Shown: positions 32,036 to 62,950, counted from the first letter of the stretch. The stretch: 64,000 nucleotides of DNA from Candidatus Omnitrophota bacterium (GCA_015233675.1 JADFXH010000002.1:14794-78793), one strand, 5' to 3'. Numbers and translations are program-made. Notes: a model not told the origin generated them from the sequence alone.

Positions 32036-32103
32036 AACTGTCCGATTACATGGTTAAATTCTTAGAGGACAGGGGCGTTAAAGATGTTTTTATGCTTTCT
32101 TGA
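32032..32103 (+). pseudogene. 23-codon stub of a ThDP-enzyme N-terminus (recombination scar)
   Basis: MKLSDYMVKFLEDRGVKDVFMLS-stop parallels MRLCDYIAQFLVKQGVKDIFMLTGYG of the intact gene at 32379. Its ATG overlaps the aldolase stop (ATGA). The stub is cut off exactly where leader copy 2 begins. Confidence 0.7.
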
Positions 32104-32310: not shown

Positions 32311-32392
32311 CCAACATTTGTTGGGCCAGCTCATGTTTAAGCTCCTGGTGCATGCCCGTCATATAGAAAGAGGGGCGGATGAGACTGTGTGA
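32297..32392 (+). CDS. Candidate 31-codon upstream ORF overlapping the ThDP-enzyme start
   Basis: MSKMAQHLLGQLMFKLLVHARHIERGADETV. Its first codons are conserved in copy 1 (28788). Its stop (32390-32392) lies 11 nt inside the downstream gene. A GGCCCAAC/GTTGGGCC hairpin at 32308-32327 lies within it. Confidence 0.25.
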   Translation: MSKMAQHLLGQLMFKLLVHARHIERGADETV

Positions 32393-37655: not shown

Positions 37656-37658
37656 AAA

Positions 37659-38684
37659 ATGAATCAGATTAAGACTGTTTTAGTGACCGGCGGCGCTGGT
37701 TATGTGGGGGCTGTGTTAGTTTCCAAACTTTTAAACAAAGGTTACCGTGTGAAAGTGTTGGATCTGTACACTTATGGTGAGGATATTTTTGACGATATCA
37801 AGGACAAGTCTGATTTGGTTGAAATCAAAGGCGATATCTGTGACCAGGCATTGCTGCGTTCTTCGCTGAAAGGATGTGACGCTGTTATTCACTTGGCTTG
37901 TATTTCCAATGATCCGTCTTTTGAATTAAATCCTGCGCTAAGTTTGAAAGTCAATTATGAAGCTTTTGAACCGCTGGTACGCATTAGTAAAGATAGCGGG
38001 GTCAGACGTTTTATATATGCATCAACCTGCAGTGTGTATGGGGTCAGTGATGCTCCCGAAGTTACTGAAGATCACCCTCTGCTGCCCATCACGGATTACA
38101 ACAAATATAAGGGAATGTGTGAACCGGTTTTATCAAAATATCAATCACCGGAATTTACAACGGTCACCATACGCCCGGCTACGGTTTGCGGATACTCTCC
38201 CCGTCAGCGTTTTGATCTGACAGTCAATATCTTGACCAATCATGCCTATCATAACAACCGTATCAAGGTTTTTGGAGGTAAACAAGAGCGTCCCAACATC
38301 CATATCGGGGATATTACTGATTTGTATGTACAGTTATTAGAACTGCCTGATGCCAAAATTGCCGGTAAAATTTATAATGCCGGCTATCAGAATCGGTCAG
38401 TTGCGGATATTGCCTTGATAGTACAGAAAATAATGGCCCGGGAATTTCCGCAACGGCCTCAACCTACTATTGAAACTTTGCCATCAGATGATATACGTTC
38501 TTACAGGATCTCTTCCGAGAAAATTAAAAAAGAGTTGGGCTTTGTTCCCCGCTTTACCATTGAAGATGCGGTACGCGATTTGATCAAGGCATTCCGTGCT
38601 GACAAGTATCAGGATTCACTTAATAATCCCCGTTATTTTAACATCAAAATGCTTAAATCTTTGGAGGCTGGGGTTCATGGATGA
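37659..38684 (+). CDS. NAD-dependent sugar-nucleotide epimerase/dehydratase (extended SDR)
   Basis: VTGGAGYVGAVL and YNKYK motifs. Confidence 0.8.
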   Translation: MNQIKTVLVTGGAGYVGAVLVSKLLNKGYRVKVLDLYTYGEDIFDDIKDKSDLVEIKGDICDQALLRSSLKGCDAVIHLACISNDPSFELNPALSLKVNYEAFEPLVRISKDSGVRRFIYASTCSVYGVSDAPEVTEDHPLLPITDYNKYKGMCEPVLSKYQSPEFTTVTIRPATVCGYSPRQRFDLTVNILTNHAYHNNRIKVFGGKQERPNIHIGDITDLYVQLLELPDAKIAGKIYNAGYQNRSVADIALIVQKIMAREFPQRPQPTIETLPSDDIRSYRISSEKIKKELGFVPRFTIEDAVRDLIKAFRADKYQDSLNNPRYFNIKMLKSLEAGVHG

Positions 38685-40212
38685 TAAGACAATTAAAAAA
38701 ATTTTACCGCTTAAAGAAATAGCCAAACGCATTGAGGATATTAAAAACAAGGGTAAGAAAGTGGTGCAATGCCACGGCGTGTTTGATATTGTCCATTTGG
38801 GGCATATCCGTCATTTTAATATGGCCAAAAAAGAAGGGGATGTTTTGCTCGTGACGCTGACCGCCGACCGTTATGTTAAACGGGGTCCCGGCCGGCCGAT
38901 TTTCAATGAACAATTACGGGCCGAGTATTTGGCTTCTCTTTCAATAGTAGATTATGTTGGGATCGTCAATGCAGAAACTGCCACGGAAAGCCTCAAGATT
39001 TTAAAACCGAATCTTTATGCCAAGGGGTTAGAGTACAAGAATCATAAGCAGGATGTCACCGGGAAGATTTCCGAAGAAGAAGAGGCTATCAAATCGGTGG
39101 GCGGTAAAATTGTTTACACGGATGATATTACTTTCAGTTCTTCAAAAATCATTAATAGTTATCTGGACGTTTTTCCCCAGCGTACGGTGAGGTATCTTCA
39201 GGCCATTGAGAAACGCTATCCGGTTGAAAGCATCGTTGAATCAATTGAAAAGTTAAAGAAGCTTAAAGTGCTCGTGATCGGGGACGCCATTATCGACGAG
39301 TATCATTATTGCGTGCCCATGGGAAAATCTTCCAAGGAACATTTAGTTGTCAACCGCTACACTTCAGAGGAAATGTTTGCCGGAGGGGGTTTAGCTACGG
39401 CCAATAATGTGGCCAGCCTCTGCGGCCAGGTGGACCTGGTGACTGTTTTGGGGCGCCAGGATTCAAAGGAAGATTTTATTCGCAGCCGTTTAGCCCCCAA
39501 TATCAGGCCGCGTTTTTTTTACCGTCCTGATACTAATACGATTATCAAACGCCGCTTTGTTTCCGAGGGCAATAATCGTAAGCTTTTTGAAGTTTGTTTT
39601 ATGCATGATAATGATATTCCCAAAAGGGAAGAATCCCATATTGCCCGTCATTTAGAAAAAGTCCTGGGTAATTATGATTTAGTGGTTGTTTCCGATTTTG
39701 GCCATGGCTTATTGACAAAAAAGCTAATCGATATTATTTGCTCAAAGGCCAAGTACCTGGCTGTCAATGCCCAAACAAACAGCGCTAATATCGGTTTTAA
39801 TATGGTGACCAAATACCCTCGCGCTAACTGTGTTTGTATCGATGAGCTTGAGCTGCGTTTCGCGGCGCATGATAAATTCAGCGATCCCCGCCACCTGGCT
39901 AAAAATGTTTATGAGCAGATCGGATGCGAACATATTATTACTACTAGAGGGGCTCTTGGTTCATTATGTTATTCACGTCAAGATGGATTTCATGAAACAC
40001 CGGCTTTCGCTTATCGCGTGGTGGACGCCATAGGTGCAGGGGACGCATTTTTTGCTTTTGTGGCGCCGTGTTTTGCCGGGGGCATGCCCCAGGAACTGGT
40101 ATCTTTTATAGGTAATGCAGTTGGTTCTTTGGCCGTACAGATTGTTTGTAACCGGGAGCCGGTTAAGAATGTGGATTTAATGAAATTTATAACGAGATTA
40201 TTGAAATATTAG
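38677..40212 (+). CDS. Bifunctional nucleotidyltransferase (RfaE-II/TagD-like, N-terminal) + PfkB sugar kinase (C-terminal); domain order reversed relative to HldE
   Basis: N-terminal HGVFDIVHLGHIRHF (HxGH) cytidylyl/adenylyltransferase motif. C-terminal PfkB signature DAIGAGDAF. ATG 38677 overlaps the upstream stop by 8 nt. Confidence 0.75.
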   Translation: MDDKTIKKILPLKEIAKRIEDIKNKGKKVVQCHGVFDIVHLGHIRHFNMAKKEGDVLLVTLTADRYVKRGPGRPIFNEQLRAEYLASLSIVDYVGIVNAETATESLKILKPNLYAKGLEYKNHKQDVTGKISEEEEAIKSVGGKIVYTDDITFSSSKIINSYLDVFPQRTVRYLQAIEKRYPVESIVESIEKLKKLKVLVIGDAIIDEYHYCVPMGKSSKEHLVVNRYTSEEMFAGGGLATANNVASLCGQVDLVTVLGRQDSKEDFIRSRLAPNIRPRFFYRPDTNTIIKRRFVSEGNNRKLFEVCFMHDNDIPKREESHIARHLEKVLGNYDLVVVSDFGHGLLTKKLIDIICSKAKYLAVNAQTNSANIGFNMVTKYPRANCVCIDELELRFAAHDKFSDPRHLAKNVYEQIGCEHIITTRGALGSLCYSRQDGFHETPAFAYRVVDAIGAGDAFFAFVAPCFAGGMPQELVSFIGNAVGSLAVQIVCNREPVKNVDLMKFITRLLKY

Positions 40213-40288: not shown

Positions 40289-40906
40289 GTGGGTATAGTC
40301 GTAGGTGTTGATTTTGACAATACACTGCTTAATTACGATGATGTGTTTTTTCACAGAGCTTTGGATTTAGGCTTGATTAATGATAGTGCGGTTTTACATA
40401 AGAGGCAGTTGAGGGAACGGATAAGACTTTTGCCTGATGGGGAATTATTATGGCAGCAAATACAGGCGTATGTTTATACAAAAGGTATTGTTCAAGCGCA
40501 TTTGATCAACGGGGTTAAAGAATTTTTTATTTCTTGTTGCCGGGAGGATGTTCGAACATTTATTGTAAGCCATAAAACCATGTATGCTCCAGTTGCACCT
40601 AACCAGATTAATTTACGGGAAAGGGCATTGGATTGGATGAAAGCCAATGGCTTCTTTGATCGGATGGGGATGGGGTTAAACATAACCCAAGTTTATTTTG
40701 AATCAACCAGAAAAGAGAAAATTGAAAGGATTAAAGTTCTGGGCTGTACGCATTTTATCGATGACTTACAGGAAGTTTTCCTGGAAGATGAATTTCCATC
40801 GGGAGTGAAGAAAGTGCTTTACTCGCCTGATTTGGAGAAGCCAGTCAGGGGAGATATCGTCGTAGCAGATAGCTGGAGAAAAATTCATGAGTGCGTTTTT
40901 AACTGA
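40289..40906 (+). CDS. HAD-superfamily phosphatase-like protein
   Basis: GTG start. Motif I VGVDFDNTL, plus a downstream FIDD motif. Confidence 0.6.
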   Translation: MGIVVGVDFDNTLLNYDDVFFHRALDLGLINDSAVLHKRQLRERIRLLPDGELLWQQIQAYVYTKGIVQAHLINGVKEFFISCCREDVRTFIVSHKTMYAPVAPNQINLRERALDWMKANGFFDRMGMGLNITQVYFESTRKEKIERIKVLGCTHFIDDLQEVFLEDEFPSGVKKVLYSPDLEKPVRGDIVVADSWRKIHECVFN

Positions 40907-43878: not shown

Positions 43879-44655
43879 ATGGATTTGGGATTAAAAGGAA
43901 AGAAAGTATTGATTGTGGGAGCCAGCAAAAATATCGGGGCTGCCATAACCCGATTTTTGGTCAAGGAAGGGGCGGCGGCTTTTTTGGTTTCTCGTGATGA
44001 GGATAAGCTTAAAGCGCTTTGCTCAGAGATTGGAGGCCGAGAGGCGGGGCATAACTATTTGGCAACAGATTTGCGTATGGAAGGTAAGCCCACAGAAGTT
44101 GCCCAAGCTGCCCTTCGCTGGGCGGATGGTGTTGATGTGATTATTCATAATGTCGGCGGGGCTTTAGGTTATAAAGATATACTGGGAGCTCGCAGCGAAT
44201 GGGAAGATGTTTGGCGATTTAATGTTGGCATTGCCATTGAGATAAATCGTATTTTGATTCCCTCCATGCGGCAGAGAAAATGGGGAAGGCTTGTCCATAT
44301 TTCTTCCATGGCGGGTCAACTCGGAGAGCCGCTTAGGCCTTTCGGCGGGGCATTGCCTTATGTGGCTGCCAAGGCGTATTTAAATTCTTATGTCAAAGGG
44401 CTTGGGGCTGCCTTAGCCGTTGACAATGTTGTGGTTTCCGGTGTAATGCCGGGTGTTGTGCTTTCTCAGGGGAAGTTTTGGGAGAAGATGCAACAAAATG
44501 AGCCCCAGCTGGTTAAAGATTTTCTTGATCATTATTGTCCGGCGGGACGTTTTGGAAAACCGGAAGAGATCGCGCCGTTTGTCGTTTTATTGGCATCGGA
44601 ATATGCATCTTTTGCCTCTGGGGCATTGATCCCTTTGAGCGGCGGGCAAGTTTAA
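43879..44655 (+). CDS. Short-chain dehydrogenase/reductase
   Basis: VGASKNIGAAI and YVAAK (YxxxK) motifs. Confidence 0.8.
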   Translation: MDLGLKGKKVLIVGASKNIGAAITRFLVKEGAAAFLVSRDEDKLKALCSEIGGREAGHNYLATDLRMEGKPTEVAQAALRWADGVDVIIHNVGGALGYKDILGARSEWEDVWRFNVGIAIEINRILIPSMRQRKWGRLVHISSMAGQLGEPLRPFGGALPYVAAKAYLNSYVKGLGAALAVDNVVVSGVMPGVVLSQGKFWEKMQQNEPQLVKDFLDHYCPAGRFGKPEEIAPFVVLLASEYASFASGALIPLSGGQV

Positions 44656-44681: not shown

Positions 44682-45893
44682 GTGCGGTTAATACTTATGG
44701 GGAATGCTCCTGGGAAAGTAGTGAAGAAGTTCATGAAGGCGTTATTTTTTCTGCCTGCTTTTTTGTTCGTTATTGTCATGCGTGTCCTTCGTCCGTTTGT
44801 TTTGATCAGGCTTAATTGTTTGCACAGTTATCGCATCGGGCATTTTTGCGGTAATACCGAGGTCTATTTATGTGAGAGGGATGCGGGGATGCATGGGAAC
44901 CGCGTCTTTGATATTTTTTTTTATGATTACAAAGTCTGCAATCATCAAGTTCTTAAAATGTGGAAACGCATTATTCCTGTGGTCGGGCCTTTATTTGCCT
45001 ACGGGATCATGTGGGTCAATCGTAAATTTCCGGGGTGGGAGGCTCATGAGTATATTTCCAAACCCAGCCAATATTGTGATACTAATGGACTGCTTGATAA
45101 ATCCAAAGCACATTTATATTTTACACAGCAAGAAGAACGGAAAGGGCAAAAGGCTTTACGGGATTTAGGGATCCCTGAAGGGAGCCCATTCGTTTGCTTT
45201 ATCGCTCGTGACGGCGCTTATTTAGATAAAGATTTTTCAGGTGAAGATTGGTCATATCATAATTATCGCAATTCTGATATCAAGAATTTTGATCCGGCAA
45301 TGAAATGGCTAATTGATCGCGGCTACTATGGCGTCAGAATGGGAAGTGTGGTTAAAAACAAACTTCCGTTTTCTTATCCGGGCATCATCGATTATGCGGC
45401 TAACGGGATGAGAAGTGACTTTATGGATGTGTATTTAACGATGAAATGTTCCTTCTTTTTATTTTCAGAATCGGGCATTTCCATGCTTGCGATGATTTTG
45501 CGCAAGCCGGTTGTCGGCGCCAATTTGATTCCCATAGGGTTTTTTCCTGCGTGGGGGAAAGACTATGTGTGTCTCCCTAAAAAGTTATGGTTGACAGGTG
45601 AAAAAAGGTTTTTGACGTTTCGGGAAATCGTTAAGTCTGAGATAGCTTTTTATTTTGAAGCACAACAGTATCAAAAAAGAGGCTTGGAGGTTGTTGAAAA
45701 TACTTCAGAAGAAATCCGTGATGCTGTTGAAGAAATGACGGCGAGATTAGAAAATCGATGGGAAACCAATGAGGAATATGAAGATTTACAGCGTCGGTTT
45801 TGGAGCTTATACGAACCTAATGAGATCCTGCGTGTTTTCAGGGCACGGATAGGGGCGAAATTTTTGATGCAAAACCAGGATCTTTTGAAATGA
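44682..45893 (+). CDS. Hypothetical protein, possibly a TIGR04372-type putative glycosyltransferase (start uncertain: GTG 44682, ATG 44697 or ATG 44733)
   Basis: N-terminal TM segment and a ...IRLNCLHSYRIGHFCGNTEVYLCE pattern that I recall from that family. I cannot verify this without a search. Confidence 0.4.
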   Translation: MRLILMGNAPGKVVKKFMKALFFLPAFLFVIVMRVLRPFVLIRLNCLHSYRIGHFCGNTEVYLCERDAGMHGNRVFDIFFYDYKVCNHQVLKMWKRIIPVVGPLFAYGIMWVNRKFPGWEAHEYISKPSQYCDTNGLLDKSKAHLYFTQQEERKGQKALRDLGIPEGSPFVCFIARDGAYLDKDFSGEDWSYHNYRNSDIKNFDPAMKWLIDRGYYGVRMGSVVKNKLPFSYPGIIDYAANGMRSDFMDVYLTMKCSFFLFSESGISMLAMILRKPVVGANLIPIGFFPAWGKDYVCLPKKLWLTGEKRFLTFREIVKSEIAFYFEAQQYQKRGLEVVENTSEEIRDAVEEMTARLENRWETNEEYEDLQRRFWSLYEPNEILRVFRARIGAKFLMQNQDLLK

Positions 45894-46624
45894 GCTTTGA
45901 GCAGGCAGTAATTTTTGCGGGGGGGCGCGGTGAACGGCTGAGGCCGTTGACGGATATGATCCCCAAACCAATGGCACCGGTAAATGGACGGCCGTTTGTG
46001 GACTATCTATTAAGGATGCTTCGAGATGCAGGTATTAGGCGTGTTGTTTTTTTGCTGGGATACAAGGCCGAAAGCGTGATTGATCATTACAGGAAACAGA
46101 GCATACCTGGTCTTGAGATTGACTATTCAATTGGCAAGGAAGAAGATCAGACAGGGCGCCGGTTGATCAATGCATATGAAAAATTGGAAGATAAATTTTT
46201 GCTTTTGTACGGAGATAATTATTGGCCGGCGCCGCTGGAGAAGATGAAAAAGAATTTTGAGCATTTACAGGTTCCTTTGATGACGACAGTCTTTAGTAAT
46301 AAAAAAGGGACCGGAGAGTATGGTTTTGGGAACAATGTGATGGTTGATCCAAGCGGCAGGGTGAAGGCCTATGATAAAAGCCGCCGGCTGTCAGGGCTCA
46401 ATGGAGTGGACATTGGTTTTTTTTTGATCGATAAGAACATTATTGATCCCAATGAAAACGGGAACATCTCTTTTGAGGAAGTTATTTTAGCAAAGATCGC
46501 ATCTGAAGGAAAATTGGGGGCTTTTCTAACAGATGAGCAGTATTATTATATTACCTCGTTTGACAATCTGCAGAGGTTCGAACAGATTATCAGGCAGAAA
46601 GTGATCCCGGGAAGGATTGAATGA
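45890..46624 (+). CDS. Sugar-1-phosphate nucleotidyltransferase (HddC/GmhD-like)
   Basis: AVIFAGGRGERLRPLTDMIPKPMAPV signature. Overlaps the upstream stop by 4 nt. Confidence 0.75.
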   Translation: MSFEQAVIFAGGRGERLRPLTDMIPKPMAPVNGRPFVDYLLRMLRDAGIRRVVFLLGYKAESVIDHYRKQSIPGLEIDYSIGKEEDQTGRRLINAYEKLEDKFLLLYGDNYWPAPLEKMKKNFEHLQVPLMTTVFSNKKGTGEYGFGNNVMVDPSGRVKAYDKSRRLSGLNGVDIGFFLIDKNIIDPNENGNISFEEVILAKIASEGKLGAFLTDEQYYYITSFDNLQRFEQIIRQKVIPGRIE

Positions 46625-47550
46625 TGGAACATCAGGATAAGATTAAGATTGCACAAGAAGTGTTAAGGCTCAGGCTTAGCCAGATATTGGTCAATGACAG
46701 GTATAAAAAGGGTGATTTCAAGGTGCCTATTCATCTGGCCCTGGGACATGAAGCGATCGCCGTGGCGGTGAGTGCTATTATGGAGGGGAAAGACCAGCTG
46801 GTTTTGACCCACCGGAATATTCATTACAATTTGGCTAGGGCAGGCTCGTTAAAAGGCGAGTTAGATGAATATTATCTAAAGCCGCAAGGGCTGGCTCGCG
46901 GGCTGCTGGGTTCGATGAATTTGGATAATGATAACCGCGGGGTGGTTTATTCTTCCAGCATTTTAGGTAATAATTTACCGGTGGCGGCCGGCCTGAGTTT
47001 GGGTAATAAGGTCAAATCCCAGGAAAGCATCGTCATAGTAGTCACCGGTGACGGGGCCATTGAAGAAGGAAGTTTTTATGAAAGTTTGGTTTTTCTAAAG
47101 AGCAATGGATTATCAGAGCTCATCATTATCGAAAACAATCAATGGTCATTGGCTACGCGCATTGAGGAGAGACGATGCCCCATTGATCTTGCCAAATTCG
47201 CAGATTCTTTAGGGGTCCGTTATGAAATTTTTAGTTCTAATAATCCTTTTGAATATATTTCAAAATTAGCGGATTACCGTCAATGGTCTTTGAGCAATAA
47301 AGCTCCTGTTTGTGTTGAAGTGCAGCTGACCACCTTAGGCCATTGGAGAATGAAGACCGATGGATATCCTGAGGGAAAGTTTATTAATTATCACGCCGGC
47401 CCGGCACCAGACGTGGATAGCCAAAAGGATTATATCTTTACGTCGACAAAAGAGGACGTTGTCTTCGTGCTCCGGGAGCATTTCAAAAAGGAAGAGATCG
47501 AGGCCATGGCGGATCGTATATTATCCCAGTTACAAAAGGAAATAGCATGA
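46621..47550 (+). CDS. ThDP-dependent 2-oxoacid dehydrogenase E1 alpha-like subunit
   Basis: HLALGHEAIAV and ThDP motif TGDGAIEEGSFYES...IIENNQWS. Confidence 0.8.
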   Translation: MMEHQDKIKIAQEVLRLRLSQILVNDRYKKGDFKVPIHLALGHEAIAVAVSAIMEGKDQLVLTHRNIHYNLARAGSLKGELDEYYLKPQGLARGLLGSMNLDNDNRGVVYSSSILGNNLPVAAGLSLGNKVKSQESIVIVVTGDGAIEEGSFYESLVFLKSNGLSELIIIENNQWSLATRIEERRCPIDLAKFADSLGVRYEIFSSNNPFEYISKLADYRQWSLSNKAPVCVEVQLTTLGHWRMKTDGYPEGKFINYHAGPAPDVDSQKDYIFTSTKEDVVFVLREHFKKEEIEAMADRILSQLQKEIA

Positions 47551-48515
47551 AATACGTAGAATACATTAATAAGCTCATTAAAGACGAGGTTCTCAGGGCC
47601 GATCGTATGGTCATATTCGGACAAAATATCAATGCCGGTTCATGCCTCTCGGGATTGACCAAGAACCTTAAAGTTAAAAAAGGCAATTTGATCATCAATA
47701 CCCCTAATTGCGAGAATTCCCTGGTAGGTATCGGCTTCGGGGCTATGATGAACGGGGTATCCGCTGCCTTTATGATGAAGCAGCAAGATTTCCTTTTGCT
47801 AGGCATCGACCAATTGGTCAATACGTATAATATCATCCGTCAAAGATCCGCGGGAGAAGGGTCATTTACCATCATGACCATTATCGTAGACAATGGTTAT
47901 GAGGGCCCCCAGTCACGATTAAATCATTTTGGTGATTTTTGTTCGATCGCGGGTATTCAGGGCTTTACCATCACCAATACGGCGGATGCGAAAGAGATCA
48001 TCTCCTCACAGTTCAATGCGCCGGGATTTCGTATCATCGGCATCAGCCAGCGTTTGTTTAAACAAGAGATCATGGAGATGAATGTCCTGAGCGTGAGCCC
48101 TGACCGTTCGGTATTTCAATATGCCCAGGGCAAACAGGCGACCATTATATGTTTCAATCTATCCTTACCTTATGGGGTGGTAATGGCCGGCCGTCTTAAA
48201 GAAAAAGGATTATCAGCATCGTTATTCTCGGTGAATAGTCCGGTCCCTGTTAACTGGGATGAGCTGGTCCATGATATAAACAAAACAGGGACATTGATTC
48301 TGATCGATGACCTTAAAAGCAGGAATTTGGCCAGCGATAATCTTTTAGTCAAGGTCCTGGGACATTGTACGTTGAAGCAAAAGTTCATTATCCGTAGAAG
48401 GCCTGAGGAAAATGTGTTTAGTCCTCACCATGATCAGATGGTCATTGACTATGACCATATCGTTGGGCAATTGGCAACGGAATGGCAGGGGGGCTTAAAG
48501 TCCGCTGAGATCTAA
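47547..48515 (+). CDS. E1 beta-like (transketolase pyrimidine-binding) subunit
   Basis: VIFGQNI...NTPNCENSLVGIGFGAMMNG pattern. Translationally coupled to the alpha subunit (ATGA overlap). Confidence 0.75.
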   Translation: MKYVEYINKLIKDEVLRADRMVIFGQNINAGSCLSGLTKNLKVKKGNLIINTPNCENSLVGIGFGAMMNGVSAAFMMKQQDFLLLGIDQLVNTYNIIRQRSAGEGSFTIMTIIVDNGYEGPQSRLNHFGDFCSIAGIQGFTITNTADAKEIISSQFNAPGFRIIGISQRLFKQEIMEMNVLSVSPDRSVFQYAQGKQATIICFNLSLPYGVVMAGRLKEKGLSASLFSVNSPVPVNWDELVHDINKTGTLILIDDLKSRNLASDNLLVKVLGHCTLKQKFIIRRRPEENVFSPHHDQMVIDYDHIVGQLATEWQGGLKSAEI

Positions 48516-48549: not shown

Positions 48550-49083
48550 ATGGATTTTGGTATTCATTTGAAAACAGTCGCTGAGCATATTCTTTTGGTA
48601 GACTTGAAAGTGCTTGAGAAAACAAAGGGCCTGATCAAGGGGACGTCAGCCGTCGGTGGAAAGATCATTATCGCGGGCAATGGCGCGAGCGCGGTCATCG
48701 CCAGCCATGTGGCAGTAGACTTGACCAAAGCTTCCGGAGTCCGGGCAGTTAACTTTAATGAAGCAGACCTTATTACATGCTTTGCAAACGATTACGGGTA
48801 TGAACATTGGATTGAGAAGGCGCTTGATTTTTATGCTGATGGCAAGGATGTGGTCATTTTGATCAGCAGCAGCGGTCAGTCAGCCAATATTGTGAATGCC
48901 GCCTTGAAGGCAAAGGCAATGGGACTAAAGGTCATTACGTTATCAGGTTTCCGAGAGGATAATAATTTAAGGAAGTTAGGGGATATAAATCTTTGGGTTA
49001 ACAGTTCTGAATATAACATTGTTGAAACAGTTCATCAGGCATGGCTTTTAGCTGTGGTTGATCAGATCGCGTCAGAAAGGTGA
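48550..49083 (+). CDS. gmhA: SIS-domain sedoheptulose-7-phosphate isomerase (GmhA-like)
   Basis: IIAGNGASAVIASHVAVDL and LISSSGQSANIV motifs. 177 aa. Confidence 0.7.
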   Translation: MDFGIHLKTVAEHILLVDLKVLEKTKGLIKGTSAVGGKIIIAGNGASAVIASHVAVDLTKASGVRAVNFNEADLITCFANDYGYEHWIEKALDFYADGKDVVILISSSGQSANIVNAALKAKAMGLKVITLSGFREDNNLRKLGDINLWVNSSEYNIVETVHQAWLLAVVDQIASER

Positions 49084-49087
49084 TATT

Positions 49088-50137
49088 ATGAAGGTTCTGG
49101 TTACGGGAAATCAGGGCTATATCGGAAGCGTCTTGGTAGACATGCTGTTGGAAAAGAAATACGAAGTCGTTGGTTATGATATTGGTTATTACGCGGATTG
49201 TTTGTTATATCCCTATAATCCCAAGATCAAACAGATCATTAAAGATATTCGTGACATTAACCCAGAAGATATGAAAGGCATCGATGCGGTCATACATCTG
49301 GCTGCCCTTTCCAATGACCCGCTTGGCGAACTGGCACCAGGGTTGACTGAAGAAATCAATTTCAGTGGTACGATCGCTGCGGCAAAAGCGGCAAAGAAGG
49401 CGGGGGTAAAGAGGTTTATTTATTCTTCTTCTCAGAGCATGTATGGTATTTCAAAATTGGATGAAGAGCTCCAGGAGGATAATAGCGAGAAATATCCCCT
49501 GACTGCCTACGCGCGTACCAAATGGGAGGCGGAGTGTGAGTTAGCCAGGATTGCGGACCAGAATTTCCATGTGATTTCTTTTAGGCCCTCAACGGTCTTT
49601 GGCGCGAGTCCTAGGCTGCGCTGTGATATTGTTTATAATAATTTAGTTGCCTGCGCCTATACTACAGGCAAAATTGAGATCAAGAGTGACGGAACGCCTT
49701 GGCGCCCGGTGGTGCATATAAGGGATGTTTCCAATGCCTATATCGCGGGTCTTGAAGCGCCGCTGGATATTGTTTCCGGGCAGGCTTTTAATGTAGGTAT
49801 CCCCAATGGTAATTTTACCGTTCGAGAGCTTGCGCAAGCGGCCCAGCGGGCGGTGGTAGGCAGTACTCTTATATTTACCGGAGAACATGGGAATGATTCG
49901 CGGACGTATAGAGTCAGTTTTAATAAAATATTGACCAGGCTGAAGGACTATTTCAAACCGGAATGGGACCTTGACCGCGGTGGGAAAGAATTGGTCGAAT
50001 TTTTTAAAAAGACCAATTTTAAAGAAGATCATTTCCGCGATCGTGCTTGTATCCGGTTAAAGCAAATCAATTATTTGCGTTCGCATGAAAATATCGATGA
50101 AAAACTTAGATGGACGGTTAAAAGGGAGATTTCATGA
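49088..50137 (+). CDS. NAD-dependent sugar-nucleotide dehydratase/epimerase (extended SDR)
   Basis: VTGNQGYIGSVL and YARTK motifs. I prefer ATG 49088 to the start at 49058. Confidence 0.8.
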   Translation: MKVLVTGNQGYIGSVLVDMLLEKKYEVVGYDIGYYADCLLYPYNPKIKQIIKDIRDINPEDMKGIDAVIHLAALSNDPLGELAPGLTEEINFSGTIAAAKAAKKAGVKRFIYSSSQSMYGISKLDEELQEDNSEKYPLTAYARTKWEAECELARIADQNFHVISFRPSTVFGASPRLRCDIVYNNLVACAYTTGKIEIKSDGTPWRPVVHIRDVSNAYIAGLEAPLDIVSGQAFNVGIPNGNFTVRELAQAAQRAVVGSTLIFTGEHGNDSRTYRVSFNKILTRLKDYFKPEWDLDRGGKELVEFFKKTNFKEDHFRDRACIRLKQINYLRSHENIDEKLRWTVKREIS

Positions 50138-50670
50138 AGTTCTTTGAACAGAAACTTCCAGGGGTTTTTATTATCGAGCCGGAACCTTTTGCTGACGAGC
50201 GAGGTATGTTCCGCAGGCATTTCTGCCAGCGTGAATTTGAAGCTCATGGCATCAGCAGTCGTGTGGCCCAAAGCAATATTTCAGAGAACAAGTTTAAACA
50301 TACCTTGCGGGGTTTTCATTATTTGCTTGCTCCCCATGCAGAAGCAAAAACCATTTCCTGTTTAGCGGGAGGGATTTACGATATTATCGTTGATCTGCGC
50401 CCTCACTCGCCGACTTATCTGCAATGGCAGTCTTTTGAACTGGATGGGAAAAACCGCAGGAGTCTCCATATCCCGCCGGGATGTGCCAATGCGTTCTTAA
50501 CCATGGAGGATAATTCCATAATTCATTATTATTTTTCGGAATTTTATTTTGCTCAAGCTGAACGCGGGCTGCGTTATAACGATCCTTTGTTTAAATTTAT
50601 ATGGCCCGTGGAGCCTAAGGCTATATCTGGAAAAGATAAGAATTTTCCAGACTATACGCCTGTAAAATGA
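50134..50670 (+). CDS. RmlC-like cupin sugar-nucleotide 3,5-epimerase
   Basis: PGVFIIEPEPFADERGMFRRHF and RGFHY motifs of the dTDP-4-dehydrorhamnose 3,5-epimerase family. Confidence 0.8.
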   Translation: MKFFEQKLPGVFIIEPEPFADERGMFRRHFCQREFEAHGISSRVAQSNISENKFKHTLRGFHYLLAPHAEAKTISCLAGGIYDIIVDLRPHSPTYLQWQSFELDGKNRRSLHIPPGCANAFLTMEDNSIIHYYFSEFYFAQAERGLRYNDPLFKFIWPVEPKAISGKDKNFPDYTPVK

Positions 50671-50677: not shown

Positions 50678-51571
50678 ATGAAAATATTTGTCACTGGCAT
50701 AACCGGTTTTGTCGGATCTCATCTTTGGGATTTCTTTAATTCATCCGATAAGGTTTATGTCCTTGCCCGCTCTCCTTTAGAGCTCAATGGACGTAAGGCG
50801 AAGGTTGTTAAAGGCGATCTGAATACGCCGGCAGAATTTTTTAATGAACTTAAAGAAATTAAACCGGATGTCTGTATACATTTAGCTTGGGAAGGCATTC
50901 CTGACTTTAGTTATGAAAAATCTTTTAAGAATTTACAGCAGGGCGCCGCATTGTTACGCTGTCTGGTTGAAGAATGTGGATGTCGCAAAATCATTGTTGG
51001 AGGGACCTGTTTTGAGTATGGCAAGCCATTTGGAGCCTGCCGTGAAGATGAAGAAGCGGCGGTGAATTCATATTTTGTTTGGGCAAAGCACTCTCTTTAT
51101 AATTTTGGCAAACTATTGGCATCAAAAGACAATGTCTCGTTTATCTGGTTTAGGTTCTTTTATGTTTATGGCCCCGGGCAACGCGGGGGATCTCTTATCC
51201 CAACCTTGGCCGATACGCTGATTAAGAATGAATTTCCGGCGGTCAAGACACCATTGAATGCTAATGATTTTATTTATGTCAAGGATGTTGCCGAAGCCCT
51301 GGTTTTGGCAGCCCGTAAGGAAATCCCGACGGGTATTTATAATCTTGGCACAGGGGTATCGGTGCCGGTATGGAAGGTCTGCGAACATCTTGAGAAATCT
51401 ATGGGAAGAGACCCCCTGTACGCCAAGCGATTGCGTGAAGCACATGTTCAACCGACAGCAAACTATTGGGCGGATATGTCCAAGTCTGCCGGTACTCTTT
51501 CCTGGAGCCCAAGGATTAAAATTGAGGAAGGTATACGTCAATACGTTAAGAGCATGGAGATAAAGGTATGA
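50678..51571 (+). CDS. NAD(P)-dependent sugar-nucleotide reductase/epimerase (SDR)
   Basis: VTGITGFVGSHL Rossmann motif. Confidence 0.75.
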   Translation: MKIFVTGITGFVGSHLWDFFNSSDKVYVLARSPLELNGRKAKVVKGDLNTPAEFFNELKEIKPDVCIHLAWEGIPDFSYEKSFKNLQQGAALLRCLVEECGCRKIIVGGTCFEYGKPFGACREDEEAAVNSYFVWAKHSLYNFGKLLASKDNVSFIWFRFFYVYGPGQRGGSLIPTLADTLIKNEFPAVKTPLNANDFIYVKDVAEALVLAARKEIPTGIYNLGTGVSVPVWKVCEHLEKSMGRDPLYAKRLREAHVQPTANYWADMSKSAGTLSWSPRIKIEEGIRQYVKSMEIKV

Positions 51572-52554
51572 TTATTTCAAGGACACCGCTTCGGATGAGT
51601 TTTTCAGGGGGAGGATCGGATATTCCGGATTATTACAGGCATCGTCAAGGAGCTGTCGTGTCCACGGCCATCGATAAATATATTTATATCACCGTCAATC
51701 AGAAATTTGATGATTTGATACGCGTTAGTTATTCAAAAACGGAGATGGTTAAGTCGATAAAAGAGGTTGAGCATAATATTATCCGTGAAGCTTTGAAGAT
51801 GGTGGGTATTACCAAAGGGATTGAAGTTGTTTATATGGGGGATATTCCTTTGGGATCTGCAGGTATAGGGTTGGGCTCATCAAGCAGTCTGGCGGTTGGT
51901 GTTCTTAACGCCCTTTATGCCTATCAGGGACGGCATGTATCGGCAGATCAACTGGCACGCGAAGCATGTGAGATCGAATTGAATATTTTAAAGAATCCTA
52001 TTGGAAAACAGGACCAGTACATTGCGGCGTATGGAGGATTTCAGCATATTCAGTTTAATTCAGATGAAAGCGTATTTGTTGACCCTGTAATTTTTCCGGC
52101 GGAAACAAAGCAGGCTTTGAACAAGAAACTTCTTTTGTTTTATACAGGGATCACTCGGATTTCTTCTTCGATTCTCAAAGAGCAGGGTCAAAATACGCCG
52201 AAGAATATAGAGCATGTTAATGGCCTGGTAGAACTTTCACGTCAGCTTTTAAAAAAACTTCAGGCAAACGATCTCCATGGGTTCGGAGAGATTTTGCATG
52301 AAGGATGGAGGCTCAAGAAAAAGCTTGCCAGCGGAATAACAAACGTTGAAATTGATGATTATTATGAAAAAGCATTGAAGGCCGGAGCAGTTGGCGGAAA
52401 GATTTTGGGGGCAGGCGGAGGAGGATTTTTGCTTTTTTATTGTGAAGAATATAACCAGAACAGTGTGCGCAAAGCCCTTGCCGGCCTCAAAGAGACGCCA
52501 TTTAATTTTGAACCGCAAGGAAGCAAGATCATTTACGTTCATGACCAGCAGTGA
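51568..52554 (+). CDS. GHMP-family sugar kinase (D-glycero-D-manno-heptose-7-phosphate kinase HddA-like)
   Basis: SRTPLRMSFSGGGSD N-terminus and GHMP motif PLGSAGIGLGSSSSLAVG. Confidence 0.7.
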   Translation: MIISRTPLRMSFSGGGSDIPDYYRHRQGAVVSTAIDKYIYITVNQKFDDLIRVSYSKTEMVKSIKEVEHNIIREALKMVGITKGIEVVYMGDIPLGSAGIGLGSSSSLAVGVLNALYAYQGRHVSADQLAREACEIELNILKNPIGKQDQYIAAYGGFQHIQFNSDESVFVDPVIFPAETKQALNKKLLLFYTGITRISSSILKEQGQNTPKNIEHVNGLVELSRQLLKKLQANDLHGFGEILHEGWRLKKKLASGITNVEIDDYYEKALKAGAVGGKILGAGGGGFLLFYCEEYNQNSVRKALAGLKETPFNFEPQGSKIIYVHDQQ

Positions 52555-52572: not shown

Positions 52573-53952
52573 ATGAAGAGTGATTTGGATATTTTTGATT
52601 TGGAGCTAAAAGGTGTCGTTGACGCGAAGGAAGCTGACGGGATTCTTAGAAAACTGATCGGGAAGGCAATTGAAAAACATTATCAATACGTTCACAAACC
52701 CCGTTTAGATTTTGTGCCCGGCAAATCGCCTGTTCCTTTGGCTGGCCGTGTTTATGATGCCGAGGAAATGAAGATGCTGGGAGAAACAGTGCTTGATTTC
52801 TGGTTGACGGGGGGAAGATTTGAGAAGCAATTTGAAAAAGAATTTACTCGTTTTTTAGGGGAACGGTTTTGTGTGCTGACCAATTCAGGCTCTTCGGCCA
52901 ATCTTTTAGCGGTATCAGCATTAACATCGCATTTATTGAAAGACCGTCAGCTTAAGCCCGGTGATGAAGTGCTGACGGTTGCCGCTGGTTTTCCAACGAC
53001 AATAGCCCCCATTGTGCAAAACGGACTGGTCCCGGTGCTGGTTGATATTGATACGGGAACATATAATGTAAACGTCGACCAACTTGAGGGGGCCGTTTCT
53101 ACTAAGACCAAAGCCATCATCCTGGCGCACACCTTGGCTAATCCATTTAATCTCCAACGCGTACAGGCTCTAGCAGAGAAACATCATTTGTGGTTGATTG
53201 AGGATAGCTGCGATGCCTTGGGGTCGCTGTATCAAGGGCGTCCGGTCGGAACTTTTGGACATATGGCCACATTTAGCTTTTATCCCGCCCACCATATTAC
53301 TATGGGGGAAGGCGGAGCTGTTGTAACGAATGACCCCATCTTAAAGAAGGCGATCGCTTCTTTTCGTGATTGGGGCAGGGACTGTGATTGCGACACGGGC
53401 AAGGACAACACTTGCGGTAAAAGATTCTCCTGGCAGCTGGGGGATTTGCCCCAAGGCTATGACCATAAGTATATTTATTCTCATCTTGGGTACAATCTGA
53501 AATTAACGGATATGCAAGCGGCCATTGGCGTTGCTCAGATGAAGAAGTTAGGCTCTTTTATACAAACCAGGCGTAGTAATTGGCAACACCTTTTAGACAA
53601 GTTAAAAGATTTGGAGGAGTATTTTATTTTACCGCGCGCGGAAGAATTTTCAGAGCCAAGTTGGTTTGGTTTTCTTTTGACCATTCGTCCGGCATCTCCT
53701 TTTAAAAGAATTGATCTGGTGAGGTTTCTGGAAGAACACAAGATTGCAACACGGATGCTGTTTGCCGGCAATATTACCAAACAGCCGGGATTTAAGAATA
53801 TTCCCTGCCGGGTGCCGTTTGATCTTAGTAATACAAATTTTACTATGAGCAATACATTTTGGGTAGGGGTATATCCGGGAATATCACATGTTATGTTGGA
53901 CTATACTGCCGGACAGATCAGGGATTTTGTCAACCGTTTAAGGAAGGTGTAG
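52573..53952 (+). CDS. rfbH: NDP-4-keto-6-deoxy-sugar 3-dehydrase, E1 type (RfbH/DdhC; PMP- and [2Fe-2S]-dependent)
   Basis: DegT/DnrJ/EryC1 fold. YPAHHIT has His in place of the PLP lysine. The cysteine spacing is exactly C-X57-C-X1-C-X7-C (SCDALG...[17 protein letters not shown]). Confidence 0.8.
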
Positions 53953-53954: not shown

Positions 53955-54824
53955 ATGCGGATATTTATTACAGGTTTATATAGTTTTGTCGGGCAGGAAT
54001 TGGTCAGGCAGTGTAAGGCCAAAGGCATTGAATGCCTGGGTGTTGATTTGATTGACGTTGAGGCCAAAAACTATTTTAAAGCGGATATCCGCGAGCCTAA
54101 GATAGCGGATTTGATCCCTGAAGGCATTGATGCGATAGTCCATTTAGCGGCAATGTCAAGGGACGGGGATTGCAAGAATAAAGGCTATGAATGTTTTGAT
54201 TCGAATGTCATGGGGACTCTTAATCTGATCAACGCCGCTCAAAGAAGGAACGTGAAGCAATTTGTATTTGCCTCTACCGAGTGGGTCTATGATTCGTTCA
54301 AAGAAAATGAAATTAAGGATGAAAATTCCGTTATTGATATAAGTAAATTAACATCGGAATATGCGCTTTCAAAGCTTGTGAGCGAGGCCAATTTCCGGCA
54401 AAAATTCGCTCACGGGTTTTGTCCGGTGACGATCCTGCGTTTTGGGATCATCTACGGACCGAGGGAAAAGAACTGGTCCGCAGTGGAATCTCTTTTTAAT
54501 ACTGTTAAGACCAAGGATGAGGTGGCGGTTGGTTCATTTAATAGCGGGCGATGTTTTATACATGTTGCGGATATCGTAGCAGGGATCATTGCTTCGCTGG
54601 GATTGCAGGGCTTAAACATTATTAATCTTCAGGGAGACAGGCTGATAACTTTGGGCGAAGTCATAGAGGCTTCAAAGGAAATTTTAAAATGCAATCCGCG
54701 TTTAATTGAAAAAGACCCGGCTAATGTCAGTGTCCGGTTGGTCTCCAACGCGCGGGCCAAAGCAGTATTGAATTGGCGCCCTATGTTTGACCTGAAAAAG
54801 GGCTTGGAGTCATTACAGGGATAA
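53955..54824 (+). CDS. NAD-dependent epimerase/dehydratase (SDR)
   Basis: ITGLYSFVGQEL and YALSK motifs. ATG 53955 lies 3 nt after the rfbH stop. Confidence 0.75.
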   Translation: MRIFITGLYSFVGQELVRQCKAKGIECLGVDLIDVEAKNYFKADIREPKIADLIPEGIDAIVHLAAMSRDGDCKNKGYECFDSNVMGTLNLINAAQRRNVKQFVFASTEWVYDSFKENEIKDENSVIDISKLTSEYALSKLVSEANFRQKFAHGFCPVTILRFGIIYGPREKNWSAVESLFNTVKTKDEVAVGSFNSGRCFIHVADIVAGIIASLGLQGLNIINLQGDRLITLGEVIEASKEILKCNPRLIEKDPANVSVRLVSNARAKAVLNWRPMFDLKKGLESLQG

Positions 54825-54866: not shown

Positions 54867-55508
54867 ATGTGTTCAACATTACAGAAATTATCTTCCTATT
54901 CCAAATCAACCAGAAAGAAAATCCTGGATATCATCAATAAATCTAATGCCGGTCATATTGGAGCTTCTTTTTCAGTGGTGGAAATACTCAGGTCGGTTTA
55001 CAGCTCGGTTGATGTAAAAAGATCAAGGATCTTGCCGCAGACCGTGACAGGCTCATCCTCAGTAAAGGCCATGCGGCCGCGGCGCTGTATACCACACTAT
55101 TTAAGTTTGGTTTAATGAGTGAAAAAGATTTGGACACCTATAATTTAAATGATTCTCTATTGAGCGCTTATGTTAATCATCTTGTCTCTTGTGTCGAACA
55201 TTCCACCGATGCCTTGGGGCATCGGATTGCCGGTAGCTTTAGGAATAGCCAACGGGGAAGCCATCATGCTCGCGGGAAAGGATTTATTCGGTAAATATAA
55301 AAAGATTGTAATAGTTGAAGATAATTTTAATTCAGGACTATTCAATTCAGTGTGCCAATGGACGGTTGAAAATAGAATGAGCGCCACGCAACTTTATTCC
55401 ATAAGTCCAAAAGAATATTATGAAGAAAGGATAGGAGATTCGCAATACCTTGAAGATAAATATGGGTTAACCCCGCAGAAGATAGCTGCGCGGATGGGGA
55501 TCTTGTAA
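54867..55508 (+). pseudogene. Collapsed split-transketolase remnant (N-subunit head fused to C-subunit tail, at least 2 frameshifts)
   Basis: AGHIGASFSVVEIL then, after a frameshift in an A-run near 55016, DRDRLILSKGHAAAALY. After a second shift near 55216 it reads GLPVALGIANGEA, joined directly to KKIVIVEDNFNSGLF...YGLTPQKIA, which matches the C-terminus of the 34919-35851 paralog. Confidence 0.75.
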
Positions 55509-56639: not shown

Positions 56640-57614
56640 ATGAAAAAAGTCTTGATCACTGGCGCGGGGGGGTTTATAGGGTCTCATCTGGCTGAATATT
56701 GTGTGAGCCGGAAAATCCAGGTGCGGACTTTTGTCCGGTACAATTCTCGTAATTATTGGGGGTGGCTGGAACAAAGTCCCTGCCGTGGGGATATTGAAGT
56801 ATTGACGGGAGACATCCGCGATTATGACTCGGTTTTTAGTGCCATGAAAGGCTGTGACAGCGTTTTTCATTTGGCCGCCCTGATCGGTATTCCCTATTCG
56901 TATGTTTCGCCGTTGGCGTATATAAAAACAAATGTTGAAGGCACCTATAACGTTCTTCAATCATCTAAAGAATTAGGCCTAAAGAATGTGATCGTGACAT
57001 CAACCAGTGAGACATATGGGACCGCCCAGTATGTCCCGATTGACGAAAAACATCCTTTGGTGGGTCAGTCTCCTTATTCGGCCAGTAAGATCGCCGCAGA
57101 CCAGCTGGCGCAAAGTTATTGTCGTTCTTTTGGGCTGCCTGTAAGAATTGTACGTCCTTTTAATACGTATGGCCCGCGGCAATCCGCGCGCGCTGTCATC
57201 CCGACAATTATTTCTCAGATATTAGCCGGTTGCAGGGAATTGAAACTTGGTAATGTTACTCCCACACGGGATTTTAATTATGTCAAAGATACGGTCCGGG
57301 GGTTTTGGGAAATTTCCCAAGCGAAAGAATTTTTGGGGGAGACGGTAAATATTGGGACGGGGACAGAGGTCTCTATTAAAGATTTGGTGGGGAGCATTTC
57401 CAGGCTATTAGGGCAGAAGGTAAAAATTATTCAGGAGCGTCAGCGGATCCGTGGGGCTGAGACAGAAGTTGACAGGCTTTGCTGTGACAACACTAAATTG
57501 ATCCGAGCCACAGGGTGGAGGCCTCAGTATGATTTAGAAAAAGGTCTTCAAGAAACAATACCGTGGATAAAGAAGAATTTAGCGGCATATAAGCCGGATT
57601 TTTATAATGTTTGA
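56640..57614 (+). CDS. legB: NAD-dependent NDP-HexNAc 4,6-dehydratase, LegB-like
   Basis: YNSRNYWGWLEQSP, SETYGTAQYVPIDEKHPL, SPYSASKIAADQL and RPFNTYGPRQSARAVIPT closely parallel my recollection of Campylobacter LegB. Confidence 0.65.
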   Translation: MKKVLITGAGGFIGSHLAEYCVSRKIQVRTFVRYNSRNYWGWLEQSPCRGDIEVLTGDIRDYDSVFSAMKGCDSVFHLAALIGIPYSYVSPLAYIKTNVEGTYNVLQSSKELGLKNVIVTSTSETYGTAQYVPIDEKHPLVGQSPYSASKIAADQLAQSYCRSFGLPVRIVRPFNTYGPRQSARAVIPTIISQILAGCRELKLGNVTPTRDFNYVKDTVRGFWEISQAKEFLGETVNIGTGTEVSIKDLVGSISRLLGQKVKIIQERQRIRGAETEVDRLCCDNTKLIRATGWRPQYDLEKGLQETIPWIKKNLAAYKPDFYNV

Positions 57615-57626
57615 TAAGAGGTCTCC

Positions 57627-62946: not shown

Positions 62947-62950
62947 ATAA

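Follow-up and report, generated by a model that had tools for sequence, protein, structure and literature searches.

Three superfamilies of thiamine diphosphate (ThDP)-dependent enzymes accept ketones and branch sugars: the YerE-like decarboxylases, which act on lipopolysaccharide sugars; the 'alpha-KADH2' enzymes, which are E1-like alpha/beta pairs; and the split transketolases, whose role as sugar branchers is only proposed, as unproven hydroxyacetyl-branching enzymes in miharamycin and amipurimycin (PMC12247030). YerE adds an acetyl group to CDP-3,6-dideoxy-4-keto-glucose in the biosynthesis of yersiniose (PMC4753412, PMC12247030). The alpha-KADH2 enzymes put pyruvate-derived two-carbon (C2) branches at C3 or C4 of keto-sugars (PMC12247030, PMC4802897, PMC4753412) in the pathways of aldgamycin, kosinostatin, paulomycin, avilamycin, trioxacarcin and kibdelomycin (PMC12247030). 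KbDH-alpha/beta used pyruvate as the donor and ketones as acceptors in vitro, about 120 alpha-KADH2 gene clusters have been found bioinformatically, and no alpha-KADH2 structure exists (PMC12247030). Both alpha-KADH2 and transketolase enzymes belong mainly to specialised antimicrobial metabolites (PMC12247030), and a contrast has been drawn between Gram-positive bacteria, with AviB1/B2, and Gram-negative bacteria, with YerE (PMC4753412). Here we analyze an E1-like gene pair in the sugar locus of a Candidatus Omnitrophota bacterium (GCA_015233675.1 JADFXH010000002.1:14794-78793; one strand, 5' to 3'; this stretch of 64,000 nucleotides is hereafter the window), which, in the reading we favour, would add a pyruvate-derived C2 unit to a nucleotide-activated keto-heptose.

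The pair consists of two genes:

46621..47550, + strand: E1-alpha-like ThDP-binding subunit (309 aa; Pfam E1_dh, E 2.4e-22)
47547..48515, + strand: E1-beta-like subunit with a pyrimidine-binding domain and a C-terminal domain (322 aa)

A preliminary description of the window had claimed a translationally coupled ThDP pair at 46621-48515, and both open reading frames (ORFs; database locus tags HQL12_01905 and HQL12_01910) were found exactly there. The alpha stop and the beta start share the sequence ATGA, with AAGGA upstream of the overlap, and the same four nucleotides join the stop of the upstream HddC-like nucleotidyltransferase to the alpha start; the alpha/beta overlap is kept in 24 of the 43 loci described below. 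The ThDP motif quoted in that description is present as well: it occupies alpha residues 143-175, GDGAIEEGSFYESLVFLKSNGLSELIIIENNQW, and reads GDGAIEEGSFYES...ENNQW. The flanks were also correctly named: upstream (45890-46624) is an HddC-like NTP transferase, downstream (48550-49083) a GmhA-like SIS protein. The Pfam match of alpha points to an E1-alpha fold, with secondary matches to the DXP_synthase_N and transketolase models and a score of 110.6 bits against TIGR03182 (NCBIfam cutoff 393.85). As for beta, it fell under the cutoff of Pfam Transket_pyr (18.7 bits, cutoff 27), matched NCBIfam models of the E1-beta of pyruvate dehydrogenase (PDH) at E 6e-14 (NF006667, 51.6 bits, cutoff 321) and found its best solved chain in an E1-beta, 1um9_B (E 7e-19). 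Its predicted structure likewise indicates an E1-beta fold: the AlphaFold model (pLDDT 81, pTM 0.84) superposed best on the E1-beta subunits of PDH and of branched-chain 2-oxo acid dehydrogenase (BCKDH), with TM scores of 0.72-0.79, and less well on 1-deoxy-D-xylulose-5-phosphate synthase (DXS) and transketolase.

The pair shares with the E1 of the dehydrogenase complexes (PDH, BCKDH, acetoin) the fold, the subunit split, the ThDP/Mg2+ motif, the activating Glu of beta and the catalytic His of alpha. In contrast to them, its curated-family scores were 3- to 6-fold under the equivalog cutoffs, and canonical E1s from annotated plasmids were only about 20-29% identical to it. In neighbour-joining trees of both subunits the E1-like family was monophyletic and formed a separate clade on the longest internal branch with respect to canonical PDH, acetoin and BCKDH E1. 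The search of annotated plasmids yielded no members of the family, only canonical E1s and the Azospirillum pairs considered below. Whereas the canonical comparator pairs adjoin genes for E2, E3 or a lipoate ligase, the statement of the preliminary description that the pair has no E2 or E3 partners nearby held for the whole window: no E2, E3 or lipoyl protein was found among its scanned ORFs, which included all those listed at 400-560 aa, where E2 and E3 usually fall in size. The same was true of relatives, as there was no E2 or E3 in loci with precomputed Pfam lists and no E2 in the loci that could be annotated by family or record. Clustering with housekeeping E1, along with E2 and E3 genes, had been named as the outcome that would overturn the initial proposal; what we found was the long-branch clade and no E2 in the window or in annotatable loci. 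The family also occurs in lineages with reduced central metabolism, such as bacteria of the Candidate Phyla Radiation (CPR). A PDH complex is not expected in CPR bacteria. These comparisons of sequence argue that the pair is not the E1 of a housekeeping complex.

Residue conservation was read from an alignment of 44 family sequences, and the canonical comparison from a MAFFT alignment of 16 family members with six canonical E1 pairs, among them Desulfotalea pdhAB, Burkholderia and Acinetobacter acoAB, and Listeria bkd. In alpha, GDG143-145, E171, N173 and His258 were invariant in the 44 members and N172 was kept in 42 of them; in beta, the ThDP-activating Glu56 was invariant. The ThDP machinery of the pair is therefore intact. 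The catalytic His of canonical alpha aligns with the invariant His258 and is thus retained, directly after an insertion of about 17 aa that is specific to the family. In beta, by comparison, the His of the canonical 'QHSQ' motif aligns with Ser123, and Ser stands at this position in all 44 members. The titles of PDB entries 1olx and 1ols name His291-alpha and His146-beta' of human BCKDH as residues of reductive acylation, and we identify the 'QHSQ' His with His146-beta' by motif; on this alignment, beta appears to have lost the His used for lipoyl acylation and to carry Ser instead. Pairwise HMMER offsets had suggested that the catalytic His of alpha was lost (residue 241/242), which the multiple alignment ruled out by placing it at His258. 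A pseudoenzyme was likewise ruled out by the strongly conserved catalytic motifs within a distinct clade.

An exhaustive HMMER search of beta against 1.84 billion representatives of 50% clusters gave 92 matches at E<=1e-30, 217 at 1e-10 and 943 at 1e-3, which implies that the family is small and that most true E1-beta proteins are too distant to register. At 90% clustering the matching families comprised 1,685 alpha and 1,096 beta matches; these entries are mostly unnamed, and nearly all betas lack a Pfam annotation. Chloroflexi, CPR bacteria and archaea hold the nearest relatives, which are only about 55-64% identical to the window pair. A scan with one genome per species yielded 43 loci, distributed as follows:

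Proteobacteria, including Magnetospirillum sp. SS-4 and a Methylophilaceae chromosome: 13 loci
CPR/Patescibacteria: 11 loci
Archaea (Nitrosopumilales, Nitrosotalea, Thaumarchaeota, Methanosarcinales and one unclassified): 5 loci
Planctomycetes: 3 loci
Unclassified bacteria: 3 loci
Nitrospirae: 2 loci
Bacteroidetes: 2 loci
Omnitrophota, Chloroflexi, Desulfobacteraceae and Acidobacteria: 1 locus each

The family is thus rare, yet spread across very distant bacteria and archaea.

The strongest evidence on the role of the pair is its genetic context, a cassette that accompanies the family almost everywhere and is conserved across domains of life. All loci were searched with the cassette proteins, and the share of each neighbour was counted over the 32 loci whose flanks reached 12 kb or more. 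Short-chain dehydrogenases/reductases (SDRs) of any kind were present in all 32 (100%), followed by an RmlC-like protein (94%), a GHMP kinase (91%), a C-methyltransferase (78%), a nucleotidyltransferase (72%) and a CmcI-like protein (62%); GmhA and the extended SDR that we call SDR_w1 are undercounted, as single-sequence queries miss divergent members. Orthologues of SDR_w1 scored 470-660 bits in many family loci. The Pfam lists of a Chloroflexi, a Beckwithbacteria and an archaeal locus have in common a GHMP kinase, a SIS isomerase, several extended SDRs, an RmlC-like protein, an NTP-transferase fused to a GmhB-type HAD phosphatase, a TylC3-type C-methyltransferase and a CmcI-like protein. Fusion of the GmhB-type phosphatase to the nucleotidyltransferase was found in many relatives, and in locus L001 GmhB scored 174 bits (cutoff 178). 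An unbiased clustering of ORFs added as conserved neighbours a classical SDR, a VOC-fold protein, cupins, an S-adenosylmethionine (SAM) methyltransferase and radical-SAM proteins; a small cupin gene often stands between an SDR gene and E1-alpha. A count of SDR genes directly before E1-alpha (13 of 40) is for this reason unreliable, as it also is because the ORF caller used extends starts too far, and it carries no weight here. Even a member whose beta is 28% identical to that of the window lies in the order SIS, SDR, RmlC, SDR, nucleotidyltransferase, HAD, GHMP, SDR, cupin, E1-alpha, E1-beta, after which come EpsG and a glycosyltransferase. In most loci the pair is at the tailoring end, after an SDR and/or a cupin, and often apart from GmhA, GHMP kinase and nucleotidyltransferase or on the opposite strand. 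The pair thus belongs to a widely distributed conserved cassette and is no peculiarity of this sugar locus, in which the preliminary description had rightly placed it.

In the window the cassette comprises, besides the pair, the following genes:

43879..44655, + strand: classical SDR, candidate ketoreductase (258 aa; Pfam adh_short, E 3e-30; ORF cluster 9)
44682..45893, + strand: TIGR04372 glycosyltransferase, probable transferase for the finished sugar (235.6 bits, cutoff 45)
45890..46624, + strand: HddC-like sugar-1-phosphate nucleotidyltransferase (Pfam NTP_transferase, E 7e-17; HddC 96 bits, cutoff 300)
48550..49083, + strand: GmhA-like SIS-domain ketose/aldose phosphate isomerase (Pfam SIS_2, E 1.6e-13; TIGR00441 gmhA 81 bits, cutoff 209)
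49088..50137, + strand: extended SDR (SDR_w1), probable nucleoside diphosphate (NDP)-heptose C4 dehydrogenase (best solved relative 6vo6/6vo8, E 3e-34)
50134..50670, + strand: RmlC-like NDP-4-keto-sugar 3,5-epimerase (Pfam dTDP_sugar_isom, E 6e-54)
50678..51571, + strand: extended SDR (SDR_w2), probable keto-sugar reductase or epimerase (Pfam Epimerase, E 4e-29; conserved in the cassette)
51568..52554, + strand: HddA-like GHMP-family sugar kinase (Pfam GHMP_kinases_N and _C; NF049969 HddA 149 bits, cutoff 600)
52573..53952, + strand: RfbH-type pyridoxal phosphate (PLP)-dependent NDP-4-keto-sugar 3-dehydrase (NF011936 RfbH 690 bits, cutoff 423)
53955..54824, + strand: extended SDR (SDR_w3), candidate branch or C4 ketoreductase (Pfam Epimerase, E 3e-31)

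The structures 6vo6 and 6vo8 nearest to SDR_w1 are, we presume, those of Campylobacter jejuni Cj1427. The RmlC-like protein matched dTDP RmlC structures (E 2e-36) as well as GDP-4-keto-heptose epimerases (about 1e-16). Among the SDRs, ORF cluster 9 adjoins the E1 pair in 12 of 45 loci, and orthologues of SDR_w3 lie directly or closely upstream of E1-alpha in many. The order in the window is cluster-9 SDR, glycosyltransferase, nucleotidyltransferase, E1-alpha, E1-beta, GmhA, SDR_w1, RmlC, SDR_w2, GHMP kinase, RfbH, SDR_w3 and a transketolase remnant. In the closest relatives, the Planctomycetales loci L006 and L007, in which the TIGR04372 gene also opens the cassette, it is glycosyltransferase, nucleotidyltransferase, GmhA, SDR_w1, C-methyltransferase, RmlC, SDR_w2, GHMP kinase, SDR_w3, E1-alpha and E1-beta. 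With respect to these relatives, in the window the pair is relocated, the C-methyltransferase is absent and the RfbH-type 3-dehydrase is present; the arrangement of the pair in the window is derived. As for the co-occurrence with RfbH and SDR genes, which the preliminary description had suggested as a check, SDRs were present in every one of the 32 loci, whereas no match comparable to that of RfbH turned up in the other family loci searched with the cassette proteins.

We consider it probable, with moderate confidence, that the pair is a lipoyl-independent ThDP carboligase which takes a C2 unit from pyruvate and attaches it to the carbonyl of an NDP-4-keto-(3-deoxy)heptose, with reduction by an SDR and glycosyl transfer as the next steps; the donor, the acceptor, the branch position and the nucleotide are those that we infer. 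The proteins are proposed to form a heterotetramer-type E1 scaffold, in which alpha would supply the diphosphate-binding domain and beta the pyrimidine-binding and C-terminal domains, and to work without E2 or E3. The pathway would start with the isomerisation of a ketose phosphate, most likely sedoheptulose-7-phosphate, by the GmhA-like protein; the GHMP kinase would then phosphorylate the product at C1, a GmhB-type phosphatase would take a phosphate off and the nucleotidyltransferase would activate the sugar. SDR_w1 would oxidise C4 to a ketone, the RfbH-type dehydrase of the window would take off the 3-hydroxyl group, a TylC3-like C-methyltransferase acting instead in most relatives, and RmlC-like or cupin proteins would epimerise the intermediate. 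The E1 pair would decarboxylate pyruvate to hydroxyethylidene-ThDP and add it to the sugar carbonyl at C4, possibly C3, giving a C-acetyl tertiary alcohol, whose branch a neighbouring SDR would reduce to 1-hydroxyethyl before the TIGR04372 glycosyltransferase puts the product into a surface glycan. Such a keto acceptor is plausibly made in situ, because SDR_w1 is nearest to 6vo6/6vo8 and because RmlC-, RfbH- and C-methyltransferase-type enzymes act on NDP-4-keto sugars (PMC10680097). Candidates for making the keto-sugar and for processing the branch carbonyl are all encoded in the cluster (the Cj1427-like SDR, the RmlC-like protein, RfbH and three further SDRs), with a regiochemistry that we also infer. 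The C2 branch on an NDP-keto-sugar advanced in the preliminary description gains support from the separate clade, from the E2 not being seen, from real precedents (AviB1/B2, Pau11/12, also called Plm8/9, and the aldgamycin, kosinostatin and kibdelomycin enzymes, all reviewed as alpha-KADH2, and YerE as an O-antigen brancher) and from the enzymes around the pair. Its substrate class stands as far as the NDP-keto-sugar goes; in place of a 6-deoxyhexose, the heptose-activation module makes a nucleotide-heptose the likelier acceptor.

This logic has a counterpart in the GDP-heptose pathway of C. jejuni, in which Cj1427 is a GDP-heptose C4 dehydrogenase (PMC10680097). An NDP-4-keto-heptose is made and tailored there by the same logic and with the same enzyme classes, the C. 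jejuni pathway consisting of GmhA, HddA, GmhB and HddC, Cj1427, the epimerase Cj1430, the reductase Cj1428 and a PLP 3-dehydratase; unlike the window, that pathway was described without any mention of thiamine (PMC10680097), and the module genes of the window are distant from its own, under equivalog cutoffs. With the YerE, ErwE and JanthE enzymes the pair would share the decarboxylation of a 2-oxo acid, the addition to a 3-deoxy-4-keto nucleotide sugar at its C4 ketone and a product destined for a cell-surface polysaccharide. The RfbH-type 3-dehydrase of the window mirrors the 3-deoxygenation that precedes YerE, so that C4 oxidation, 3-deoxygenation, ThDP-dependent addition and reduction would follow one another as in yersiniose. 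Enzymes of the YerE type differ in being single chains with acetolactate synthase-like N, M and C domains, and YerE is a flavoprotein. The likeness to alpha-KADH2 (AviB1/B2, Pau11/12 = Plm8/9, KbDH) is one of architecture and context only. It lies in separate E1-alpha and E1-beta genes without E2 or E3, in a place among nucleotide-sugar tailoring genes that make a keto-sugar, beside reductases (or aminotransferases) able to process a branch carbonyl, and, as proposed here by analogy, in the addition of a pyruvate-derived C2 unit to a ring ketone. Whereas the named alpha-KADH2 enzymes are actinomycete and act on deoxyhexoses or pentoses, the window family sits in surface-glycan loci with a heptose-type activation module, spans CPR bacteria, archaea, Planctomycetes, Proteobacteria and others, and has the beta His-to-Ser exchange and the alpha insertion as its own features. 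No report relevant to E1-like genes with heptose or O-antigen clusters was found in the literature searched.

Several observations weigh against the favoured reading. The GmhA, HddA and HddC matches are all under their equivalog cutoffs, and hence the sugar might not be D-glycero-D-manno-heptose; the four-step logic of heptose activation is conserved, and the exact sugar is uncertain. GmhB was not found in the window cassette, the sole match in the window being a weak HAD-like one at 16529-16876. The glycan-linked E1-like pairs of Azospirillum keep the beta His in the MAFFT alignment, so its loss is not needed for a sugar role and argues only against lipoyl transfer. Lastly, the pair lies between nucleotidyltransferase and GmhA, a position that, taken alone, would also fit precursor supply. 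In that alternative, a transketolase/DXS-like pair would join an aldose phosphate to a 2-oxo acid, either hydroxypyruvate or pyruvate, and the resulting heptulose or unusual ketose phosphate would go to the GmhA-like isomerase. The secondary matches of alpha and the lesser resemblance of the beta model to DXS and transketolase are compatible with it, as is the 'EGPQS' of beta, which by eye is loosely like the 'DGPTHQ' region of transketolase, and several hosts are archaea or CPR bacteria, in which the non-oxidative pentose-phosphate pathway is often incomplete. We nevertheless regard it as unlikely, since the order in the window is derived, the closest relatives and most loci placing the pair at the tailoring end, where it co-occurs with NDP-4-keto-sugar enzymes; moreover, the proteobacterial and planctomycete carriers normally have an ordinary transketolase, the window itself has an intact split transketolase, and on chemical grounds a pyruvate-derived 1-deoxyketose would not be isomerisable by a GmhA-type enzyme.

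Another ThDP reaction on the nucleotide sugar, either C-C cleavage or decarboxylation of an oxidised C6/C7 side chain or extension of a terminal aldehyde to a linear nine-carbon sugar, seems to us quite unlikely. It would find room in the three to four SDRs without known regiochemistry that the cassette holds, in the weak match of SDR_w2 to the heptose 6-epimerase family, which implies a 6-keto intermediate, and in the natural ability of acetoin-type E1 enzymes to cleave alpha-hydroxyketones (PMC12247030). No precedent for such a reaction with a nucleotide sugar turned up in the literature searched; every E1-like sugar enzyme that has been characterised or assigned genetically puts its C2 branch on C3 or C4, and the C4-dehydrogenase-, RmlC- and RfbH-type enzymes indicate chemistry at a C4 ketone. 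That the pair is simply an ordinary 2-oxo acid or acetoin dehydrogenase E1 lying by chance in a sugar locus, its E2 and E3 being encoded elsewhere, is what the best Pfam and NCBIfam matches (PDH E1 families) and the database labels of the relatives ('pyruvate/acetoin dehydrogenase E1') would have it be. This is very improbable and already contradicted by the scores far under equivalog cutoffs and the separate clade, the catalytic His gone from beta in 44 of 44 members, the lack of E2 and E3 in the window and in relatives' annotatable loci, the glycan cassette kept over 40+ genomes of both prokaryotic domains, and a beta that matches just 943 of the 1.84 billion cluster representatives.

The Azospirillum plasmid pairs (A. 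oryzae, L049 11947-13996; A. thermophilum, L050 11971-14008; A. ramasamyi, L052 9911-11924) lie in polysaccharide loci in the order SDR, E1-alpha, E1-beta and DegT, without E2. They thus resemble the window pair in lacking E2, in the preceding SDR and in the glycan locus, and their beta is annotated as 'transketolase C-terminal domain protein'; in A. oryzae a PfkB/HldE-like kinase and a SIS isomerase come before the pair, which is therefore also heptose-linked. Unlike the window family, they branch with canonical E1s, keep the His of beta 'HSQ' and are always followed by a DegT aminotransferase, with identities to the window pair of 39% (alpha) and 22% (beta). Their retained beta His and their grouping with canonical E1s make them look like a separate recruitment of E1, and the Azospirillum cluster is independent support for the association of an E1-like pair with heptose. 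By analogy with kibdelomycin, the arrangement of SDR and DegT hints that the C2 branch is transaminated. The literature searched contained no description of these pairs.

On a wider reading, which we put forward tentatively and with some reserve, the family would be a deep clade of E1-type carboligases that work independently of lipoyl groups and have so far gone unrecognised; on a horizontally mobile cassette, they would build C-branched heptoses, branched sugars with nine carbons, for the cell envelopes of CPR bacteria, ammonia-oxidising archaea, Planctomycetes, Proteobacteria and others, and the His-to-Ser exchange of beta and the insertion of alpha would have adapted the E1 scaffold to accept a nucleotide sugar. 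If true, this would be the first case of alpha-KADH2-type sugar branching to be described beyond specialised antibiotic pathways, and the branched heptose would be of a class that no glycan structure has yet shown, predicted for little-studied envelopes such as those of Thaumarchaeota and CPR bacteria. An E1-like family with a heptose cassette in surface-glycan loci would also blur the division by which YerE belongs to surface polysaccharides and alpha-KADH2 and split transketolases mainly to antibiotics (PMC12247030, PMC4753412). The pair proteins, compact and highly conserved, could serve as biocatalysts in making tertiary alcohols, and about a thousand entries per subunit, now unnamed or labelled 'hypothetical' or 'pyruvate/acetoin dehydrogenase E1', could be reannotated.

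The other ThDP items listed in the preliminary description proved to be real:

32379-34070: YerE/JanthE-like ThDP enzyme (JanthE, PDB 8rph, 283 bits, against 231 for the best acetolactate synthase)
34098-35851: intact split transketolase, adjoining the YerE-like gene
54867..55508, + strand: frameshifted, internally deleted split-transketolase remnant, after SDR_w3

PDB 8rph is JanthE, a YerE-like enzyme (PMC12188165). All three ThDP classes with a known or proposed role in branching keto-sugars, YerE-like, E1-like and split transketolase, are thus present in the locus. The remnant had no Pfam match and aligned by tblastn with the N-half of the window transketolase in two frames (45% over 67 aa and 39% over 41 aa, E 7e-15). 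It occupies the site after SDR_w3 where L006 and L007 have the E1 pair, which suggests a history of rearrangement or replacement. Directly upstream of the YerE/JanthE-like enzyme, within 29346-34070, are genes for a DmpF-like acetaldehyde dehydrogenase, a DmpG-like 4-hydroxy-2-oxovalerate aldolase and an HpcH/HpaI aldolase. Because the YerE-like ErwE and MMAR_2332 use 4-hydroxy-2-oxo acids as donors of long branches, in erwiniose and caryophyllose (PMC12247030), this sub-locus could, by analogy, make such a donor and a long-branched sugar.

A VOC/glyoxalase-fold protein of 147 aa, absent from the window, adjoins the pair in seven loci (L006, at 10927-11367, L007, L010, L014, L015, L021 and L027). 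Since a VOC-family sugar epimerase is mentioned for L-heptosamine biosynthesis in the septacidin pathway (PMC9978623), the cassette protein may be a heptose epimerase. At 36654-40212 the window seems, from similarity, to carry a second heptose-type module: three genes there are 61%, 58% and 42% identical to an SDR, an SDR and a PfkB/HldE-like protein of the A. oryzae plasmid (L049 6705-16235), a cluster with its own E1-like pair and two DegT aminotransferases. In the HldE-like protein of the window the nucleotidyltransferase domain precedes the kinase domain, the reverse of the order in E. coli HldE. Four ORFs had no Pfam match at the thresholds used (40289-40906, 205 aa; 58692-59459, 255 aa; 10849-13185, 778 aa; and 18661-20115, 484 aa), two of them inside the sugar locus. 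Finally, the stretch at 56640-63925 encodes a GDP_Man_Dehyd-like SDR, a CBS-domain nucleotidyltransferase, a GFO/IDH/MocA oxidoreductase, a CTP_transf_3 cytidylyltransferase, an SDR, a NeuB with a SAF domain and an epimerase, and by its gene content looks like a pathway for a nonulosonic acid similar to legionaminic or pseudaminic acid.

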